Position numbers and translations under genes: made by a program. Source: Acidimicrobiia bacterium (lineage in GTDB: Bacteria; Actinomycetota; Acidimicrobiia; Spongiisociales; ZC4RG35). Taken from it: a stretch of DNA of 64,000 bases. This document shows positions 2,982-24,499 of this stretch, in pieces. The first letter of the stretch is position 1. Each line of letters opens with the position of its first letter. The DNA lies in the NCBI GenBank assembly GCA_035513335.1, contig DATKCE010000031.1:20971-84970 (forward strand), written 5' to 3'. The notes under the pieces are model-generated. The model had not been told where the DNA came from, did no database searches, and saw nothing but the letters and a program-made list of their open reading frames with translations.

Positions 2982-3869
2982 CTAGCGGGTCGGAGCTATC
3001 GCTGAGGCGACGGAGGCGGCACCACCGCCGAGCAGCAGCGTGTAGTGGTTGACCCCGGGGAGGTACTCCATGCTCACATTGGGGTTCGAGGCGACCAGGT
3101 CCTCGGCGGCTTTGCGGGGGATCATCCCCCCGGGCTGGTCGAGGGTCCCTCGCTCCACCACGATGACGTGGGTGGGAACTTCGAGGGCGGCTGCCGCTCG
3201 GTTCGCCTCGGTCCCCACGGTGATCTCCCGGGCCCCGACCTCGATGGCGGTGGCGTTCGCCGTCACCTCGAAGCGGTCTTCTTTGGGTACGAGCTCGTGG
3301 CCGAGGGCTTGTCTCATCGAGTCGTCCCAGTGGCTCTCGAAGGCAGGGTGGCTCTTCCAGTGGTCGAAGAACGCGTCTTCGCTGTCGAAGCCCATCTCGA
3401 GTCGTCGTAGCGAGGGGCCGACGATCGAGTCGATGATCTCCTCGGGATCGGCGTCGGGATCGCGCGGGATGGGCAGCCCGCCGTCGACCAGGACCATCCG
3501 CTCCACGCGGTCGGCATGGTTGGCCCCAAACAGGGCAGCGACCCAGCCGCCCATCGAGTAACCGGCGACGATGCCGCGAGCGGTGTCGAGGTGGTCGAGC
3601 GCTCGGGCGATGTCGTCGGCCACGGTGGTCAGATCGTATGGCGGCGGGGCGTCGGCGCTGCCGGCGCGGCCCCTCACGTCGAGGGCGATTATCCCCAACC
3701 CGGGAGGCAGGTGCTCGATCACCGCCCCCCACCAGCGGGAGTTGCCGGAGAGCCCGTGAAGCAGCACCACAGTGCCGGCGTCCTGCGTCGATGGCCGGTA
3801 CCACGCATTGATGTGGCCCCCCGGGATCGGGATCGAGACGTCGCGCATCCATCGGAATGTAGCCGTCAA
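2982..3869 (-). CDS. alpha/beta hydrolase fold protein
   Basis: HGLSGNSRWW oxyanion region and nucleophile elbow GYSMGG; 295 aa. Confidence 0.8.
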   Translation of the reverse strand: MTATFRWMRDVSIPIPGGHINAWYRPSTQDAGTVVLLHGLSGNSRWWGAVIEHLPPGLGIIALDVRGRAGSADAPPPYDLTTVADDIARALDHLDTARGIVAGYSMGGWVAALFGANHADRVERMVLVDGGLPIPRDPDADPEEIIDSIVGPSLRRLEMGFDSEDAFFDHWKSHPAFESHWDDSMRQALGHELVPKEDRFEVTANATAIEVGAREITVGTEANRAAAALEVPTHVIVVERGTLDQPGGMIPRKAAEDLVASNPNVSMEYLPGVNHYTLLLGGGAASVASAIAPTR

Positions 3870-16764: not shown

Positions 16765-17440
16765 CAGTCACTACCACCTTTCCGGCAAAGACCCTCAGGT
16801 CGAGCCTCAGACCCTCGTTCTCACCGCTGAGCCCGGGTGATCGGTACGACTCGTTGATCCCGACGCCGTCGGTGAATCGTTCGAGGACCTCCACCTGCCC
16901 CGCTCCGACCTGTGTCTCCACGGATACGTCTGCTCCCGCCGGCACCCGGACGATCAGCTCGCCCATTCCGACACTTGCGCTCAGACCGGCGGGAACGTCG
17001 ACATCGTCGATCTGTCGCAGGTCGAGGGTCAGCTTCCCCATGGCGAGGTTGTAGTCGGCACGGATGTCGTCCACCGAGGTGATCTCCACCGTTCGGTCTC
17101 CGATGCCGCCCTGGAACCCCTCGAACGGGGCGGCGGCGGTCAAGAGGGTGACCAGCCCGAGAATCGTTCCGAAGACGATCAACCCGCCCTGGGCCCCCTG
17201 GCGGGCGAGGAGCATCAGAGCCAGTCCCGCCACCGTGGTGGCGATTCCGAGGACCGCGGTGACGCTGAGATCGATCAGCGCAATGCGCTCCAACAGCCAG
17301 AGGACGCCGATCAGGACCAGGATCCCGCCACCCAAGATCTGTGGGAGCTGCCGGCCCGGTCTCTCAGATGACGTGGGCCCGGCTGGGGGCTTGTCAACGA
17401 GTGTCACGATTGATACCTCCCAGAACCAATGCCAGACCAC
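16757..17440 (-). CDS. LiaF-like / DUF4097-type cell-wall-active-antibiotic response protein
   Basis: N-terminal TM helices then a beta-rich C-terminal domain (repetitive VxVxxGxG pattern) typical of LiaF/toastrack; overlaps the PspC gene end. Confidence 0.65.
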   Translation of the reverse strand: MVWHWFWEVSIVTLVDKPPAGPTSSERPGRQLPQILGGGILVLIGVLWLLERIALIDLSVTAVLGIATTVAGLALMLLARQGAQGGLIVFGTILGLVTLLTAAAPFEGFQGGIGDRTVEITSVDDIRADYNLAMGKLTLDLRQIDDVDVPAGLSASVGMGELIVRVPAGADVSVETQVGAGQVEVLERFTDGVGINESYRSPGLSGENEGLRLDLRVFAGKVVVTDE

Positions 17441-17864
17441 CGATGACGAGGATGGCCGGCCAGAAGTACTGTCCCAGCCAAGGCGCCATGGTGTTCACGA
17501 GGGCGATGGTGCCCACGAACATCAGGACGATCCCGATCACGACGGCCCCGCTCACTTGTGCGGCCGGCGCCGGATTGACGGACTCACCGGCGGGCTGCTC
17601 GGGAACGATCAGCCACATCAGCAGATAGATCAGAACGCCCGACCCACCGCCGAATGCCAGCACCACGAATCCGATCCGAAACCAGACCGGGTCCAATGCG
17701 AAGTAGTCGCCCAACCCGCCACATACCCCGGCGATGACCTTCTGTTCTCTGCTTCGATAGAGACGTGGCTGTGACTCGGTGGCGGCTACTTCGCCGGTCT
17801 CGACCGGCTCAGACGTTGTCGGCATGAGTGGACTCCTTTCGATGTCCGGCACAGCGGAGGCCAA
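17394..17864 (-). CDS. PspC domain-containing membrane protein
   Basis: PspC motif LYRSREQKVIAGVCGGLGDYFALDPVWFRIGFVVLAF followed by TM helices. Confidence 0.8.
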   Translation of the reverse strand: MASAVPDIERSPLMPTTSEPVETGEVAATESQPRLYRSREQKVIAGVCGGLGDYFALDPVWFRIGFVVLAFGGGSGVLIYLLMWLIVPEQPAGESVNPAPAAQVSGAVVIGIVLMFVGTIALVNTMAPWLGQYFWPAILVIGGLALVLGGINRDTR

Positions 17865-18039: not shown

Positions 18040-19062
18040 CTAGGCGAGGAACCAGCTGGCTTCCCGGTAGGTGTCCAGGTCGAGGTGGCGAGGCTCGGAG
18101 ACGGCCTCCGCCATGTCGACGGGGACGATGCGTTTGCCCCGGAGGGCTACCATCACCCCGCTGCTCCCCTCCATTGCCAACTCGGTCGCCTGTACCCCCA
18201 TGCGCGTGCCGAGCATCCGGTCGAATGCGGTGGGAGTCCCGCCACGCTGGAGGTACCCCAGGATCGTCGGTCGGGTCTCGTACGTGGTGAGACGCTCGAT
18301 CTCGGACGCCACTTCCTGGCAGACCCCCCCGATCCGGGTGAACCCGTAGGGATCGATGCCCGTCTCCGAGATGGCGCCTCCCGGGTCCGGCGTCCCCTCC
18401 GCCACCACCACCACGGAATAGTCATGTCCCGATTCGTGACGGTTGACGATCCTGCGGGCCAGGTCTTCGTAGTCGACCTCCACCTCTGGCACGAGGATCG
18501 CCTGGGCCCCTCCGGCCATTCCTGCCGCGGCGGCGATCCATCCGGTGGTGCGACCCATCACCTCGATCACCATGATCCGGTTGTGTGACTCGGCCGTGGT
18601 GGCCAGCCGATCGATGGCGTCGACGACGATCTGGACTGCGGTGTGGAACCCGATGCTTACGTCGGTACCGCCGATGTCGTTGTCGATTGTCTTCGGGACT
18701 CCGACGATGGAGAGACCCTCCTTCTCCAGGCGGATGGCCGTCCGCAGCGACCCGTCCCCTCCGATCACCACCAGGGCGTCGATCTCGTGCCGTTCCACCG
18801 TGTTGCGAATCGACTCGTGGCCGTCGCCGTGCTCGTAAGGGTCCTTGCGCGATGTTCCCAAGATGGTGCCACCCTTGCCCACCACGCCCCGCACGTCGTC
18901 TCTGGTCATCGGGCGGGTTGCCCCCTCCATGAGGCCGGCCCAGCCCTCCTCGATACCGACGACCTCCCGTCCCTCGGCCGTGGCCCTGGTCACCACGGCC
19001 CGGATGGCGGCGTTGAGGCCCGGGCAGTCACCTCCTGCGGTGAGGACTCCGATCGAGCCCAT
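18040..19062 (-). CDS. pfkA: 6-phosphofructokinase
   Basis: GGDCPGLNAAIRAVV, VIGGDGS, PKTIDNDI and MGR motifs; 340 aa. Confidence 0.9.
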   Translation of the reverse strand: MGSIGVLTAGGDCPGLNAAIRAVVTRATAEGREVVGIEEGWAGLMEGATRPMTRDDVRGVVGKGGTILGTSRKDPYEHGDGHESIRNTVERHEIDALVVIGGDGSLRTAIRLEKEGLSIVGVPKTIDNDIGGTDVSIGFHTAVQIVVDAIDRLATTAESHNRIMVIEVMGRTTGWIAAAAGMAGGAQAILVPEVEVDYEDLARRIVNRHESGHDYSVVVVAEGTPDPGGAISETGIDPYGFTRIGGVCQEVASEIERLTTYETRPTILGYLQRGGTPTAFDRMLGTRMGVQATELAMEGSSGVMVALRGKRIVPVDMAEAVSEPRHLDLDTYREASWFLA

Positions 19063-19187
19063 CAGTTATTCGTCTGCGTCACGGGTGAGCGATTGTAGGA
19101 GTTGTGCGGTTGCCGCTCGGATCTCGCGACACAACAGGGGCTTTTGGCCCTGGACGACTCGGGTCGGGGGTAGTATGTTCCGAGACT

Positions 19188-19321
19188 GAAGAGCCCGAGG
19201 TGTGAGAACGGGTACCAGGTGACTGCCTGGTTGAGACCGAGACCATAGGATTTTCGGGACCGTAGAACCTGAACCGGCTGATACCGGCGTAGGAACTCAT
19301 TCATCGGGCTCTTCTTTTTTT
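19188..19321 (+). ncRNA. candidate structured small RNA / leader element, unassigned family
   Basis: 11-bp long-range helix GAAGAGCCCGA (19188..19198) with TCGGGCTCTTC (19304..19314), enclosing hairpins ACCAGG-6nt-CCTGGT (19214..19231) and CCGG-6nt-CCGG (19274..19287). Followed on the plus strand by T7 (19315..19321). Local GC clearly below the window average. No long credible ORF. Confidence 0.3.
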
Positions 19322-19418
19322 CTCTTCTCCCCTGTGCCGGTCTCGGTCCTGTCTGATCGGGCTTCCGCCCCGAGGGGATCGGGTCCTGCGACCGTAGCCT
19401 TCACGCCGGGGGATGAGC

Positions 19419-19880
19419 TCAGTCGCCGGCCGGAATGTCGACGTTGAAGGCGTCGAACAAGAGCTCTGCCCCTGACTGGCGATGAAGAGTCAGCCGTACG
19501 AGGAGAGCGTTCACCCGGCGCCGAAGCATCTGCGTGGACCAGTCGGCGCTCATGCTCGTTGCTCGATGACAAGCCGACTCCAGAGACCGATGCTCGTCGC
19601 GAAGAGTCTCCACCGCGGCGTGCAGGTGTGGCGCCCGGTCGAGGATTTCGGTGAACAGGCCGTCCTCCGCCTCGACCTGGGAGGTGTGGTCACTCAGTGC
19701 CGCTTCCAGATGTGAGAGGGCGGTCTCGATCTCGATCCTCCAATCGGCGGCGCCACTGGGCCGGGCGACGGCCCGCTCCAGATCTGTCATGGCGTCGTAG
19801 AGCTCCTGGCGCCGGCTGGCCACCTGGTCATGGGTTTCGATCGACGGCCAGGTGATGTCGTCTGCTCGAAATTCGCTCAT
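19419..19880 (-). CDS. hypothetical protein
   Basis: start taken at Met65 (MSEFRADD) of the track ORF; the upstream extension is a Pro/Ser/Arg-rich high-GC artefact. No family recognised. Confidence 0.45.
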   Translation of the reverse strand: MSEFRADDITWPSIETHDQVASRRQELYDAMTDLERAVARPSGAADWRIEIETALSHLEAALSDHTSQVEAEDGLFTEILDRAPHLHAAVETLRDEHRSLESACHRATSMSADWSTQMLRRRVNALLVRLTLHRQSGAELLFDAFNVDIPAGD

Positions 19881-19947
19881 AGCCGCGATGATGCGGCACC
19901 CAGGTCGCCGGAGAAGGGCACAATGGCCCATTCTTCCAGCCGTTCGG

Positions 19948-20322
19948 TCAGGCTCCCCGGGTGAGGTTCTCGAAGAGCAGGGGCTCGGTGGGGGCGAGCA
20001 GGAGGACCTCGCCGTCGGTCGACATCCAAAGATGAGGGCCGGCCTTGAGCCAGGCGCGACGGGGTAGGGCATCGAGGTTGCGTCGTTTCCGAGCCGTGGG
20101 GGGGACGTAGACGAGGACTTCCGGCGCCGGAGCGCCCAGAGCCTCTATCGAACCTGCCAGGTCGTAGCTACCGAACAAGGCAGCCATGGCCTCCGCAGGG
20201 TCCACGGCTCCGCGGTCGGAGAGCCAGTCGACCGACCCGCACCCTTCGCATGCCGCGACTGCAATCCTTCCCACCCATACCGGTTTGTGCTCGCACCACT
20301 GGTTGGTGTCCATGTCCGACAA
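19948..20322 (-). CDS. hypothetical Cys-containing protein
   Basis: 124 aa; WCEH ... CEGCGS cysteine cluster near the N-terminus. No family recognised. Confidence 0.45.
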   Translation of the reverse strand: MSDMDTNQWCEHKPVWVGRIAVAACEGCGSVDWLSDRGAVDPAEAMAALFGSYDLAGSIEALGAPAPEVLVYVPPTARKRRNLDALPRRAWLKAGPHLWMSTDGEVLLLAPTEPLLFENLTRGA

Positions 20323-20453
20323 CTTACGACAGGGGTGGGACAGAATTCGTGCCGACCCAAGAGTCCCCGTGGATAGGGGACTTTCGGCCGTAGTGGGACA
20401 CTGCGGCTGGGCCGATGATGTGGAAACAGATGCCCATACCTGAGGAGGATGAC

Positions 20454-20834
20454 ATGGAACTCAGAGAGTTGGTCAGTGGCGAGATCGAGACCATCGCCGT
20501 GGAGGCGAAGGCCATCGATGCCGCCATCCAAATGCAGCGTGCCGGTGTCGGCTCGCTGGCTGTGATGGCCAAGGACGACTTCAGCGGGATCTTCACCGAG
20601 CGCGACGTCCTCCGTCTGGTCGCATCGGGCGAGGACGCGGCCTCGGAGACGGTCGGGGAATGGATGACGATGTACCCGGACTCCTTCCTGCCCGACATGG
20701 AGGTCAGTGAGGCCGCCGAGTGGATGCTCGCCGCCGGGTATCGGCATCTCCCGGTGATGGACGAGGGGCGTCTCCTCGGCATGGTGTCGATCAAGGACAT
20801 CCTCTGGGCGCTCAGCGGAGACGCGGTCGGTTGA
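20454..20834 (+). CDS. CBS domain-pair protein
   Basis: two CBS motifs (GIFTERDVLRLV; RHLPVMDEGRLLGMVSIKDILWAL). Confidence 0.8.
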   Translation: MELRELVSGEIETIAVEAKAIDAAIQMQRAGVGSLAVMAKDDFSGIFTERDVLRLVASGEDAASETVGEWMTMYPDSFLPDMEVSEAAEWMLAAGYRHLPVMDEGRLLGMVSIKDILWALSGDAVG

Positions 20835-20835
20835 C

Positions 20836-21300
20836 ATGGATGAGCTGACCCGTGAAGAGGCCATGGAGGTCCTCGAGCGCGAGTATGTCGCCCATCTCGG
20901 GGTGATCGCCGACGAGGCTCCCTACGTGACCCCGATGTCCTACGTGGTCGACGAGAGTCGGATCCTGTTCCGGACGATGCCGGGAAGGAAGCTGGAAGGG
21001 ATCCGCTCCAATCCGTCGGTGTGTATCGAGGTCTCGCGGTTCGACGGAGAGACCGGGGACTGGGTGAGTGTGATCGTGCGGGGCACGGCGCGTCTCGTCG
21101 AGGACCCGGACACGAGACAGCAAACGGTCGTCCGGCTCTTCGAGAAGTACGAGAAGGTAATGGGATCTCCACTATCCCGCAGTGGCGGACTGGTGCCTCT
21201 CGGGGGTGACCCGCAAGTGATCGAGGTGCCCATCGACCACATCTCAGGTATGTCATCGGGGCGCGGCATGCATGTTCGCACCAAGCCGGGAAGGCTCTGA
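20836..21300 (+). CDS. pyridoxamine 5'-phosphate oxidase-family (FMN/F420-binding split-barrel) protein
   Basis: PNPOx-like split-barrel signature (EVLEREYVAHLGVI ... RILFRTMPGRKLEGIRSNPSVCIEV). Confidence 0.75.
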   Translation: MDELTREEAMEVLEREYVAHLGVIADEAPYVTPMSYVVDESRILFRTMPGRKLEGIRSNPSVCIEVSRFDGETGDWVSVIVRGTARLVEDPDTRQQTVVRLFEKYEKVMGSPLSRSGGLVPLGGDPQVIEVPIDHISGMSSGRGMHVRTKPGRL

Positions 21301-21757
21301 GTTGTTCGTCGAGTACTCGACCAAAGTCGAGGCCACCCTGTCGGATGTGGAGAAGAGCCTCGATCGGCTACGTTCCAGCCTCGAGGAGTGGGCTGACATC
21401 GCCTACCGGGAGGGTGAGCAGCTGAGGGCACGAGTCGGTCCGTCGGCGAGCATCGCCCGCGAGGTGAAGCTGGAGATCGGCGGGGCCGAGATCCATCACT
21501 CCGGGCTCGTCTATCCCATTCATTGGACTGCTAACGGGGCGGGTCTCCTCTTCCCCGAGTTGAATGCGGACCTGATCCTGTCGAAGGCTGGATCCCATGT
21601 AACCCATCTGACCCTGCGCGGGACCTACCAGCCGCCTCTGGGATCCCTGGGCCGGCTCGCCGACCGGGTGGTGCTGGGCAGGGTCGCCGACGCAACGGTC
21701 GCCGACTGGATGGAGCGGCTCGCCAAGGCGCTCAGTTCCGAGGCGGCGCCTCGCTGA
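21272..21757 (+). CDS. hypothetical protein
   Basis: 161-aa ORF; start uncertain (overlaps the preceding gene by 29 nt; TTG near 21304 possible). C-terminus converges on and overlaps the histidine-kinase gene. Confidence 0.45.
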   Translation: MFAPSREGSELFVEYSTKVEATLSDVEKSLDRLRSSLEEWADIAYREGEQLRARVGPSASIAREVKLEIGGAEIHHSGLVYPIHWTANGAGLLFPELNADLILSKAGSHVTHLTLRGTYQPPLGSLGRLADRVVLGRVADATVADWMERLAKALSSEAAPR

Positions 21758-22856
21758 CCGGGAAGCGCACCTCCACGGTCGTTCCCACTCCCGGTTCGCT
21801 CTCTACCTGCATGGTGCCCCCGAGACCGTACGCCCGGGTCCGGATGTTGGCCAGGCCCATCCCCATCGAGGTGTGAGCGGCGTCGAAACCGATGCCGTCG
21901 TCGACGACACTCAGGACCAGTTCCCCTCCCGCGCGCCCCAGTCGGATCTCGACGTTGTCGGCGTGCGAGTGTCGGAGGGCGTTGGACAGGGCCTCGGTGA
22001 CGATGAGGAGCAGCTCGTCGTCGGAATCCCGGCTCTGGAACTCGTCGAGGGTCAGTCGCACGCTCGCCGGGTAGACCGCACCCATCCGGGCGACCAGCGT
22101 TTGGATTCGTTCGTCGAGCCCGGCGGCGGGCCGGGCCGTGTCTCGCAACTCGAACACGTATCGACGCAGCCGATTGACCGCCTCGTCGAGGGTGTCGATC
22201 GACTTGTCGAGGACCTCGGCGATCCCGAGGTCGGCCACTTGTGAGGTGAGGCCCTGCAGACCGAGACCGACGGCGAACAGGTCCTGGATGACGGAGTCGT
22301 GCAGATCGCGGGCGATGCGGTGACGATCCTCCATGACGGCGACGTGGCGGAGTCTCGTCTGGAGACGGGCGGTCTGGACGGCCGCACCGGCTATGCGCCC
22401 CAGGGCCTGGACGACCGCGACGTCCTCGTCGGTGAACCCGCCTTCCTTGTCGGCGAGATAGAGGTTTCCGAACGTCTCGCCACCCACGGACACCGGGACG
22501 CCCAAGAACGTCTCCATGGGGGGGTGGTGCTCCGGGAAGCCGACGGCGTCGGGGTGGTCCGCGATCGACTCGAGGATGATGGTCTTGTTCTCCCGGATCA
22601 CCGTTCCCAGCACACCGCGTCCGGTGGGCAGGTGCCCGATCCGATCGGCTTCCTCCTTGGTTATCCCCTGGTAGACGAAGTCAGAGAGGACCTGATGGTC
22701 ACCGAGCACGCCCATCGCCACGTAGGGGGCGTCCGTGGCGGCCATGACCTCTGCCACCAGGGTGCGGAGGACCCGGCCCAGATCCGCCTCACCTTCGACC
22801 GCGGCTGCCTCGGCGATGAGAGGCGCGATGCGGCTCAGTTCGCGCCTGTCGGTCAT
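21732..22856 (-). CDS. GAF-domain sensor histidine kinase (HisKA_3/NarL-partner type)
   Basis: N-terminal GAF domain; H-box DRHRIARDLHDSVIQ; HATPase_c G-boxes (DDGIGF, GMGLANI). Start at Met23 (MTDRREL). Confidence 0.85.
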   Translation of the reverse strand: MTDRRELSRIAPLIAEAAAVEGEADLGRVLRTLVAEVMAATDAPYVAMGVLGDHQVLSDFVYQGITKEEADRIGHLPTGRGVLGTVIRENKTIILESIADHPDAVGFPEHHPPMETFLGVPVSVGGETFGNLYLADKEGGFTDEDVAVVQALGRIAGAAVQTARLQTRLRHVAVMEDRHRIARDLHDSVIQDLFAVGLGLQGLTSQVADLGIAEVLDKSIDTLDEAVNRLRRYVFELRDTARPAAGLDERIQTLVARMGAVYPASVRLTLDEFQSRDSDDELLLIVTEALSNALRHSHADNVEIRLGRAGGELVLSVVDDGIGFDAAHTSMGMGLANIRTRAYGLGGTMQVESEPGVGTTVEVRFPVSEAPPRN

Positions 22857-22883
22857 GATGCGACGATAACCCCGGCTAGCGTG

Positions 22884-23558
22884 ATGGCCATGGCGCTGCG
22901 AGTATTGCTGGTCGACGATCACGAGGTCGTCCGCGCCGGCTTGAAAGCCCTCATCGACTCCCAGGACGACATGACGGTCGTCGGAGAGGCGGGTACCGCC
23001 GAGGATGGGGTGCGCCGAGTGGGATTCGACGAGCCCGACGTAGTGGTGCTCGACGTGAGGCTGCCCGACGGCAGCGGTGTGGAGGCATGCCGCGACATCA
23101 GGGAGCGCTTCCCTGACGTGAAGGTGCTCATGCTCACCTCAGTCGCCGATGAGGAGGCGTTGATGGCGGCGATCCTCGCCGGAGCCTCGGGATACGTGTT
23201 GAAGCGCATCAAGACCGAAGACCTCATCGGCGACATCCGCAAGGTGGGATCGGGGGAGTCGCTGCTCGACCCGGAGATGACAGACCGTCTGTTCCAGCGC
23301 TTACGGGCCGGGTCGTCCGAGGACTCTCTGCTCGGTCAACTCACCAAACAGGAGCGAACGATCGTCGAGCACATCGCCGACGGCCTGACCAACAAGCAGA
23401 TCGCCGACGAGATGTTCCTGGCCGAGAAGACCGTCAAGAACTACGTCTCCAACGTCCTCGCCAAGATGGGGATGAGTCGGCGCAGCGAGGCCGCCGCCTA
23501 CGTGGCTCGGGTCCAGGCCGAGAAGGAGTCCTCGGACCTGCCTGAGAGTTGGAACTGA
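22884..23558 (+). CDS. NarL/FixJ-family response regulator (REC + LuxR HTH)
   Basis: LLVDDHEVVRAGL ... DVVVLDVRLPDGSG receiver; LuxR HTH LTKQERTIVEHIADGLTNKQIADEMFLAEKTVKNYVSNVLAKMG. Divergent from the kinase with only 27 bp between start codons. Confidence 0.9.
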   Translation: MAMALRVLLVDDHEVVRAGLKALIDSQDDMTVVGEAGTAEDGVRRVGFDEPDVVVLDVRLPDGSGVEACRDIRERFPDVKVLMLTSVADEEALMAAILAGASGYVLKRIKTEDLIGDIRKVGSGESLLDPEMTDRLFQRLRAGSSEDSLLGQLTKQERTIVEHIADGLTNKQIADEMFLAEKTVKNYVSNVLAKMGMSRRSEAAAYVARVQAEKESSDLPESWN

Positions 23559-23559
23559 C

Positions 23560-23967
23560 TCACACCGGCTCCAGGACGATTACCGGGATCTCGTCCCGGA
23601 TGGTCCTCTGCTCGTACTCGGCGAAGAAGGAGTAGTCCGACTTCTGGCGCTCCCAGATGGGCGTCCTCTCGTCGCCGTGCAGGACCCGTGCCCGCACCTG
23701 GATCTCGTCGGTTCCCACCTCGATGGTGGTTTCGGGATGGGCCCGCAGGTTGTGGTACCAGTCGGGGTTGGTGTCGGCGCCGCCTTTGGAGGCGAAGATG
23801 GCATAGCCTCCCTCGACTTCTTGGTACATCAGTGGCGTCACCCGCTCGATTCCCGTCCGGGCCCCGCGATGGTGGAGCAAGAGCAGGGGCCTGCCCTCGA
23901 ACGAGCCGCCCATCTGGCCCCCACCGGCCCGGAACTCGTCTATGACGCGGGCATTCCTGTCACTCAT
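23560..23967 (-). CDS. deazaflavin(F420)-dependent nitroreductase family protein (DUF385)
   Basis: N-terminal motif IDEFRAGGG ... LLLLHHRGARTG typical of the F420H2-dependent reductase family. Confidence 0.8.
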   Translation of the reverse strand: MSDRNARVIDEFRAGGGQMGGSFEGRPLLLLHHRGARTGIERVTPLMYQEVEGGYAIFASKGGADTNPDWYHNLRAHPETTIEVGTDEIQVRARVLHGDERTPIWERQKSDYSFFAEYEQRTIRDEIPVIVLEPV

Positions 23968-23989: not shown

Positions 23990-24499
23990 TCATAGCTCGA
24001 TGATGGGCATCTCCATGGTGTCCTCGATCCGAGCGCCGGGTACCAGCAGGACAGGGAGATGTGAGTTGACCATGACCCTCGCCGAGACGCTCCGCCAAGC
24101 CTCCTCGGTGAAGAGTCGACGGGTGGCCCCCATGACCACCAACTCGGCGTTCACCCGCGACGCGGTCTGGATGATGGCCTCGGCGGGGTCGTCACCGTCG
24201 ACGAAGTGGACGTCGGACTCGATCTCCTCCGCAGCCAAGGAGGCACATATCGGATCGACGGCGCGTCGGCCCCTCTCCTCCAGGTACGCAGCCGCTTTCT
24301 CCTCCTCGGTGGAGCCCTGATCAGGGGCGTCGTCCAGGAACGATCGTCTCACATCGTCGTCGAGGGACTCGAGGAACGACCGGGGCACTCTGATGACGGT
24401 CATCACCGATACCGACGTCTCGTCGCCGATCAGCTGTCGGCAGAACTCTGCGGTGGGAGCCGCGGGCAACACGCCAGTCGTGGCTATGAGGATCCGCAC
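23990..24499 (-). CDS. universal stress protein (UspA family)
   Basis: Usp fold with the C-terminal ATP-binding motif VVMGATRR ... VNSHLPVLLV. Confidence 0.85.
   Translation of the reverse strand: MRILIATTGVLPAAPTAEFCRQLIGDETSVSVMTVIRVPRSFLESLDDDVRRSFLDDAPDQGSTEEEKAAAYLEERGRRAVDPICASLAAEEIESDVHFVDGDDPAEAIIQTASRVNAELVVMGATRRLFTEEAWRSVSARVMVNSHLPVLLVPGARIEDTMEMPIIEL

Follow-up and report, generated by a model that had tools for sequence, protein, structure and literature searches.

A gap of about 350 bp upstream of pfk, in a 64,000-nucleotide stretch of the Acidimicrobiia bacterium contig DATKCE010000031.1 (this whole stretch is called the window below), appears to hold a complete plus-strand unit made of a promoter, a thiamine pyrophosphate (TPP) riboswitch and a terminator-like end. 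We read it as a TPP-dependent terminator that has been orphaned here and is now either a recent relic or a controller of antisense transcription, and we give this reading a probability of about 0.7. Its parts differ in strength. With high confidence the element is predicted to be a TPP riboswitch (RF00059) with an ordinary aptamer of the known class, which would bind TPP; the mechanism and present function of the riboswitch are proposed with low to moderate confidence. The RNA class is known, and its architecture and context here are unusual; such a unit, functional or relic, accounts completely for the seemingly "empty" 350 bp.

The identification comes from a covariance model and from an agreeing fold. 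A permissive Rfam scan of positions 18800-19800 (E up to 1) gave a single match, RF00059 on the plus strand at 19198-19311, with 53.8 bits, E 1.5e-9 and model positions 1-105 of 105 covered (cmscan). Two orthologues score above the gathering threshold (54.5 bits in L083 and 58.3 bits in L146; L numbers are our labels for the contigs compared). The minimum free energy (MFE) fold of 19183-19325 reaches -56.8 kcal/mol (z = -4.0, with 0 of 200 shuffles as good), and both the MFE and the centroid folds give a three-way junction of P1, P2-P3 and P4-P5 with the same helices as the RF00059 structure. The ligand-contact motifs, UGAGA of the pyrimidine sensor and ACCUGA and CGUAGG of the pyrophosphate sensor helix, are present and invariant in eight lineages; one junction G is absent from the aptamer (GGA-A versus GGGAA).

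These results bear out much of a first-pass annotation of the region made from the letters alone, which had described a structured plus-strand regulatory RNA of about 130 nt with a terminator-like end. The fold and the RF00059 match both support that description. The helix of 11 bp and the T7 run lie exactly where it placed them (Table 1), and the two perfect hairpins that it pointed out, ACCAGG-TGACTG-CCTGGT at 19214-19231 and CCGG-CTGATA-CCGG at 19274-19287, can now be named P3 and P5. The lower GC content that it remarked on is real as well (0.59 over 19100-19400 against 0.65-0.69 in the flanks). As for its proposal of a small RNA or riboregulator, the regulatory RNA on the plus strand stands, and the family that it had left unnamed is supplied by the Rfam scan that it recommended: the TPP riboswitch.

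Outside the RF00059 model the aptamer is extended by an 11-bp G+C-rich helix, P0, stacked on P1 across a 3x3 internal loop. An inverted-repeat finder returned the corresponding arm pair, 19188-19206 and 19296-19314, as 19 nt with 84% complementarity. Apart from this T7 the whole window, at 65.8% GC, has no run of five or more T, and the placement of the T7 right behind the helix is therefore not chance. The G+C-rich stem and the adjoining U-tract by which terminators are recognised are both found here; the terminator stem and the closing stem of the aptamer are one helix, and in topology the entire aptamer is enclosed by the terminator-like hairpin. The U-tract is kept as U6-7 in L002, L145 and L146, interrupted by C in L003 and L083, and truncated in L147; it persists as U6-7 in lineages at about 50% four-fold divergence.

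A scan with the pfk protein puts the window among uncultured Acidimicrobiaceae and Acidimicrobiia. Syntenic contigs were found via pfk, the small protein encoded downstream and the convergent gene (L002, L003, L083-L086, L145-L148 and L152-L153). Two of them, L085 and L086, begin within the aptamer, leaving just the 3' arm of P0 and the leader visible, and the others hold the whole riboswitch (52.9-58.3 bits where scanned; L152 and L153 by nhmmer). Pfk and the riboswitch, which are divergently transcribed, adjoin in every riboswitch-bearing lineage. No riboswitch occurs near pfk in L004-L008, where pfk is 65-76% identical, or in L149-L151.

How well has the element been preserved among these lineages? 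Across eight distinct versions the 127-nt unit of P0, aptamer and P0 shows 0-11 differences (0-9%); the corresponding divergence is 12-75% at the four-fold degenerate sites of pfk and 5-44% in the 125-nt spacer that separates pfk from the riboswitch. The 15 variable columns fall in loops or junctions (eight), in the closing pair of P3 or in P3a (five), or weaken P1 in L152 alone (two), and there is no variation in P0, P2, P4 and P5. Standard pairs make up 97.3% of the pair cells, versus 29-49% when the partners are slid. As judged from these alignments the riboswitch is under strong purifying selection, and its support consists of selection and the model match, not of covariation.

The gene downstream is less constant. 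In L003, L083, L145 and L146 an open reading frame (ORF) that encodes two transmembrane helices in about 85 aa lies about 100 nt past the riboswitch; in the more distant L152 and L153 the same riboswitch precedes a Usp gene. A conserved structure was sought with RNAalifold in the leader that runs from the riboswitch to the small gene, and the hairpins that it returned there are weak and poorly conserved. Differences between L002 and L003 within the small gene, read from the DNA alignments, are mostly synonymous, and the ORF can be taken as a real gene. An exhaustive search (E up to 1e-3) returned 126 cluster representatives at 50% identity, of 47-255 aa but mostly 80-110 aa, with the conserved pattern G..VGG.VGAIVAVN.VI..G...GYEAS..EVF...GP.LGV..ARR.RR; the family also has a conserved loop, GYE(A/S)S, and a tail rich in Arg. 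No Pfam model describes it. The 31 members that were scanned gave just weak hits to unrelated membrane-protein families, among them the actinobacterial Holin-X family in 10 of the 31. A reading of the small protein as a fragment of ThiW was rejected: one sequence had weak hits (E 7e-4 and 2.6e-3), and none of the 31 members has a ThiW hit. A general link between this family and TPP riboswitches was rejected too. A regular expression run over 57 metagenome loci found no aptamer upstream of the small gene, its sole hits (L116 and L117) lie downstream of the small gene and look like chance, and an Rfam scan of 20 of the 57 loci gave no match. On these surveys the link between the small gene and the TPP riboswitch is specific to this lineage.

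In the window the small gene is missing. Blastn and alignments against seven relatives place a deletion junction (ambiguous by 2-3 nt in a G-run) where the window lacks 268 bp present in L002 (3391-3658), and this segment holds the 3' part of the leader and the entire small gene. The identical junction is found in the independently assembled Logan contig L144, and the small gene is still there in L154 and L155, contigs that share 88-89% identity with the window in the hemerythrin-like protein. We conclude with high confidence from these comparisons that the window riboswitch is an orphan and that the 268-bp deletion took the small gene. The remnant of the leader differs from L002 by roughly 12%, near the 12% seen at pfk four-fold sites (counted from the alignments). 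From U7 to the stop codon of the convergent gene there are now 97 nt with no same-strand gene between.

The window is not the sole case of such a loss. An independent and larger deletion in L147 and L148 took out most of the U-tract together with the leader and the small gene (L147 4375-4414, L148 1229-1268), so that about 40 nt now separate the riboswitch from the stop codon of the convergent gene. L002, L084, L085 and L086 share a 1-nt deletion, just past the GTG start, that shifts the first transmembrane helix out of frame, and L002 has a premature stop as well; in this sub-lineage the small gene is probably a pseudogene, with the riboswitch intact. Aptamer and P0 are unharmed in all three losses, those of the window, of L147 and L148, and of the L002 group. 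Under neutral decay after a uniformly timed loss the chances of so few changes are 0.13, 0.044 and 0.24, with a product of 0.0014, figures that depend on an arbitrary timing prior and on metagenome consensus sequences. This is suggestive, not proof, of selection independent of the cargo.

The putative promoter of the riboswitch includes a 17-mer box and a candidate -10 hexamer. The box is nearly invariant among orthologues and its flanks diverge; GGTATGTT is conserved across orthologues as well, with TAGGTT in L152. The predicted start of the RNA is near 19185, 3 nt ahead of P0. A scan for the sigma-70 consensus found no promoter, the outcome expected for an activator-dependent actinobacterial promoter. 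The recurrent 17-mer, GGGACTTNYGRCCSTAG, has three matches in the window versus 0.29 expected, a pattern built from the same three sites, and at each of them about 35 nt lie between the box's 3' edge and the predicted start. A further box-related site was noticed at 20354-20367 on the minus strand. We regard the 17-mer box as probably an activator site, and we infer that the riboswitch unit may belong to a DosR-like regulon.

By our reading of the alignments, the predicted start of the small gene in the relatives is the G of its GTG, and its mRNA would therefore be leaderless. The cargo genes (small protein and Usp) seem to have their own box and promoter. Dev-like boxes were looked for upstream of the small-protein family elsewhere, and none was found. 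Two minor features accompany the GTG: a four-codon mini-ORF, ATG CTC GAC GGG TGA, overlaps it (GGGTGA; L002 about 3630-3660 on the minus strand, and also L003, L083 and L084), and a -10-like hexamer, GATGCT, lies 6 nt ahead of it. Together they suggest a leaderless or coupled start of the small gene. On the other strand, the candidate -10 of pfk is kept as TACAAT, TACACT or TAAGAT in all syntenic loci. TACAAT is likely the pfk -10, and the pfk 5' untranslated region, with its end predicted near 19087, would then stop short of the riboswitch.

Table 1. Features of the riboswitch unit and its surroundings (window coordinates, or contig coordinates where a contig is named)
Feature	Position	Strand	Remarks
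Gap	19063-19418		bounded by pfk start (minus) and stop codon of convergent minus-strand gene at 19419
pfk, ATP-phosphofructokinase, 340 aa	18040..19062	minus	PF00365, E 8.7e-105; frame fits GC at third codon positions
Candidate pfk -10, TACAAT	19094..19099	minus	about 30 nt upstream of ATG
17-mer box, GGGGCTTTTGGCCCTGG	19137..19153	plus	centre about 41 nt upstream of predicted riboswitch start
Candidate riboswitch -10, TATGTT	19174..19179	plus	overlaps TAGTAT 19171-19176
P0 5' arm, GAAGAGCCCGA	19188..19198	plus	extends P1; invariant in 8 lineages
Aptamer P1	19202-06/19296-300	plus	
Aptamer P2	19208-11/19260-63	plus	
Aptamer P3	19214-20/19225-31	plus	one of the two perfect hairpins
UGAGA motif	19232-36	plus	
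Variable P3a stem	19237-44/19248-57	plus	
Aptamer P4	19268-71/19290-93	plus	
Aptamer P5	19274-77/19284-87	plus	the other perfect hairpin
P0 3' arm, TCGGGCTCTTC	19304..19314	plus	invariant in 8 lineages
U7 tract	19315..19321	plus	abuts P0; intrinsic-terminator-like end of RNA of about 135 nt
Remnant leader and promoter of deleted small gene	19322..19409	plus	aligns with leader of relatives
Decayed box copy, GGGTCCTGCGACCGTAG	19381-19397		in remnant leader; 2 mismatches
Deletion junction	about 19408-19410		ambiguous by 2-3 nt (G-run)
Convergent gene, 153 aa	19419..19880	minus	hemerythrin-like in some homologues; codon-position GC fits minus strand
Third related box	20377-20393		upstream of CBS-PNPOx operon
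CBS	20415-20834	plus	
PNPOx-like protein	20836-21300	plus	
GAF-HisKA_3 kinase	21732-22922	minus	
NarL/LuxR-type response regulator	within 22299-23558 (about 22900-23558)	plus	
F420H2-dependent quinone reductase	23560-23967	minus	
Usp	23990-24499	minus	
Small two-helix protein gene	L003 3384-3644	minus	
Small two-helix protein gene	L083 679-1014		
Small two-helix protein gene	L145 4533-4778	minus	
Small two-helix protein gene	L146 4552-4767	minus	

The events that we propose can be described as follows. The RNA would begin near 19185 and fold into a TPP aptamer with P1-P5; TPP would pre-organise the junction and P1, and P0 would zip while the polymerase sits on the U-tract. Closure of P0 would lead to termination and an RNA of about 135 nt, which makes the element an OFF switch. 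Without TPP the closure would be slower and more polymerase would read through. In the relatives this read-through would reach the small membrane protein gene or, more distantly, the Usp gene, and in the window it would yield just RNA antisense to the convergent hemerythrin-like operon.

The protein of the convergent gene is an exact match to a protein of an NCBI metagenome-assembled genome (tag VMP13_06585); one homologue has PF01814, and homologues of 193 aa carry a weak hemerythrin signal. A mechanical 217-aa ORF at 19419-20072 on the minus strand is probably this 153-aa gene starting at 19880, as in public records. In the relatives its stop lies within about 5 nt of the stop of the small gene, and the convergent transcripts must therefore overlap.

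Several results weigh against a TPP-dependent terminator. The default Rfam scan of the window gave no match, its copy falling 0.5 bit short of the gathering cut-off of 54.3 bits, and no thiamine-related gene lies downstream of the riboswitch in any of the roughly 10 lineages, which is atypical for the TPP class. The first-pass annotation had also proposed an alignment in search of compensatory changes, and for this the orthologues are too alike: at 97% identity no pair is changed on both sides. A scan for the terminator consensus made no call on a hairpin whose "loop" is the 105-nt aptamer and not a compact short loop. L152 and L153 retain P0 without a U-tract, and termination is therefore not the mechanism everywhere. 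P0 is worth about 18.5 kcal/mol and forms at equilibrium with or without TPP, and a conserved anti-terminator or other competing structure was looked for and not found; any ligand control must therefore be kinetic.

What else could the unit be? A genuine if doubtful possibility is a free-standing regulator under selection that needs no same-strand gene and acts either by TPP-controlled antisense transcription into the hemerythrin-like operon or in trans as the RNA of about 135 nt. The intact aptamer and P0 in three lineages with the small gene damaged or lost, with the low neutral-decay product, speak for it, as does the remnant leader, which diverges about neutrally right beside the riboswitch and whose box has decayed. 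The cargo changes by lineage (small membrane protein, Usp or none) and pfk and the convergent gene stay; the cargo genes, moreover, apparently have their own box and promoter, and antisense control by a free-standing riboswitch has a precedent (PMC2258182). On the other side, the losses may be very recent and the decay test rests on a timing prior and on metagenome consensus; the riboswitch is absent from L149-L151 and L004-L006 and hence dispensable in related genomes; we see no metabolic logic between TPP and the hemerythrin-like gene; and the antisense arrangement inverts riboswitch logic and is rare (PMC2258182). More speculative still is the suggestion that the TPP aptamer, enclosed by its terminator hairpin, forms a stand-alone RNA gene within a DosR-like (hypoxia/redox) regulon of this Acidimicrobiia clade. 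Driven by the activator box of that regulon and conserved regardless of cargo, it might tie the thiamine-cofactor status to the stress regulon via antisense read-through into the hemerythrin-like operon or trans action, and would not serve as a cis-regulator of thiamine genes. A constitutive terminator formed by P0 and U7, with a stable small RNA that binds TPP but does not switch, whose long clamp would hold the aptamer folded, and that has a trans function or none, is unlikely. The stability of P0 with no competing conserved structure found, and a predicted start just 3 nt before P0, as in a compact RNA gene, would suit it. Such a terminator would be pointless upstream of an intact small gene unless expression of that gene comes entirely from a promoter of its own; a trans target was not identified, and L152 has no U-tract.

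Two further readings concern the minus strand. The first-pass annotation had taken the region for the 5' leader of pfk on that strand, and this part of it is not supported: the aptamer is on the opposite strand and the conserved TACAAT hexamer lies between pfk and the riboswitch. That the region acts as a leader or regulatory structure of the pfk mRNA we consider very improbable, although the riboswitch stands beside pfk in every lineage that has it and an operon upstream on the pfk strand could send read-through across the region; the covariance-model match is specific to the plus strand, and relatives with 66-76% identical pfk do not have the element. The chance that the minus-strand ORF at 19062-19304 is a real small gene of 80 aa is practically negligible. 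It is predicted by gene callers on two public contigs and its stop overlaps the pfk start (TGATG). As the annotation had stated, the ORF is present and has no recognisable homology (no Pfam match); in the orthologous spacers it is hit by 1- and 2-nt indels, its frame is lost in L003 and L145-148, and we rejected it. The part of the ORF within the riboswitch is invariant at all three codon positions, and this is therefore constraint at the RNA level. The TPP-dependent terminator remains our preferred reading of the unit.

RF00059 is also known as the THI element, with examples in the leaders of Escherichia coli thiM and thiC and of Bacillus subtilis tenA. The window element shares with these classic TPP riboswitches the same aptamer, its P1-P5 three-way junction and, here, UGAGA, ACCUGA and CGUAGG. 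It differs from them in its place, which across its lineages is 5' of a small membrane protein gene, of a Usp gene or of nothing, whereas they typically precede genes of thiamine biosynthesis or transport, and in having no separate terminator and anti-terminator, P1 being lengthened by 11 bp onto the U-tract. OFF logic through a terminator is common to many TPP riboswitches of Firmicutes (PMC2258182).

A closer likeness in architecture may be seen in the hydroxymethylpyrimidine pyrophosphate (HMP-PP) riboswitch, or thiS motif, whose aptamer is embedded in an intrinsic terminator hairpin (Atilho et al. 2019, PMC6478431). Both are compact, with the ligand domain inside the terminator hairpin, and both sense compounds of the thiamine pathway, as is predicted here. 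The aptamer of the HMP-PP switch is tiny and sits in a classic terminator stem, whereas here the full-size TPP aptamer of 105 nt serves as the "loop". Ligand binding to the HMP-PP riboswitch reportedly blocks termination (ON), the opposite of the OFF logic expected here. The Rfam scan found no match to the thiS motif in 18800-19800.

The antisense arrangement can be compared with the SAM-I (S-adenosylmethionine) riboswitch that is convergent with ubiG-mccBA in Clostridium acetobutylicum and controls an antisense RNA, an arrangement described as rare by Barrick and Breaker (PMC2258182). In the window, and in L147 and L148, a riboswitch with its own predicted promoter and terminator is likewise aimed, with no gene intervening, at the 3' end of an opposite-strand operon. 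The present arrangement differs in that it arose by deletion of an intervening gene, has a predicted antisense transcript, and shows no evident link between ligand and target. The B12 riboswitch and AspocR of Listeria are a further case of a riboswitch with an antisense RNA. In the same genus, the SAM riboswitches SreA and SreB are terminated and act in trans as small RNAs, and they still control genes in cis. A short riboswitch transcript with its own terminator could likewise persist here as a discrete RNA; no trans target was identified for it, whereas the Listeria elements keep their cis control.

For the DosR-like regulon the model is DevR/DosR of Mycobacterium tuberculosis, which contacts a GGGACT half-site motif, with the proximal box 33-34 bp from the start (PMC3177182). 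The box here has a GGGACT half-site with a partly palindromic partner and about 35 nt to the predicted start, and its neighbourhood includes a GAF-HisKA_3 kinase, a NarL-type regulator, Usp, CBS, pfk and PNPOx/F420 enzymes. It differs in its right half-site, which is GGCC(C/G)TAG and not AGTCCC, and in that two of the three promoters show a single box. Literature searches on a link of TPP riboswitches with Usp, pfk, DosR or Acidimicrobiia, and on stand-alone or convergent TPP riboswitches, yielded nothing specific.

No riboswitch class is more widespread than that of TPP, and its members are nearly always interpreted as controlling thiamine genes in cis. The clade described here departs from this picture in three respects. 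Its aptamer is standard but scores just under the Rfam cut-off and is missed by default annotation. Its expression platform is a P1 lengthened onto a U-tract, which, if ligand-dependent, would be very economical and a full-size counterpart of the HMP-PP switch. And its riboswitch is conserved although the downstream gene has been swapped, frameshifted or deleted. If the riboswitch of the window is still functional, it would be a natural case of a single deletion making a riboswitch an antisense or stand-alone regulator; if it is not, it would be a dated snapshot of riboswitch orphaning.

Some observations on the surroundings may be added. The segment 19948-24499, with pfk adjoining, resembles a DosR-type stress island. 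On the downstream side of pfk synteny is not conserved: where L145-L148 carry a P-type cation ATPase, a gene with a PspC domain and a LiaF-like gene (17394-17864, minus strand) are found in the window. A 10-nt perfect complement was seen between the aptamer core at 19235-19244 (GACCGAGACC) and the remnant leader at 19339-19348, but it is window-specific, conserved in no relative and probably due to chance, and we rejected it as an anti-aptamer. Two Logan contigs of run SRR8556377, L001 (which ends at about 19311) and L144 (which starts at about 19285), both break within the riboswitch with an overlap of about 26 nt, perhaps because of strain variation or of a branch in the assembly graph at that place.

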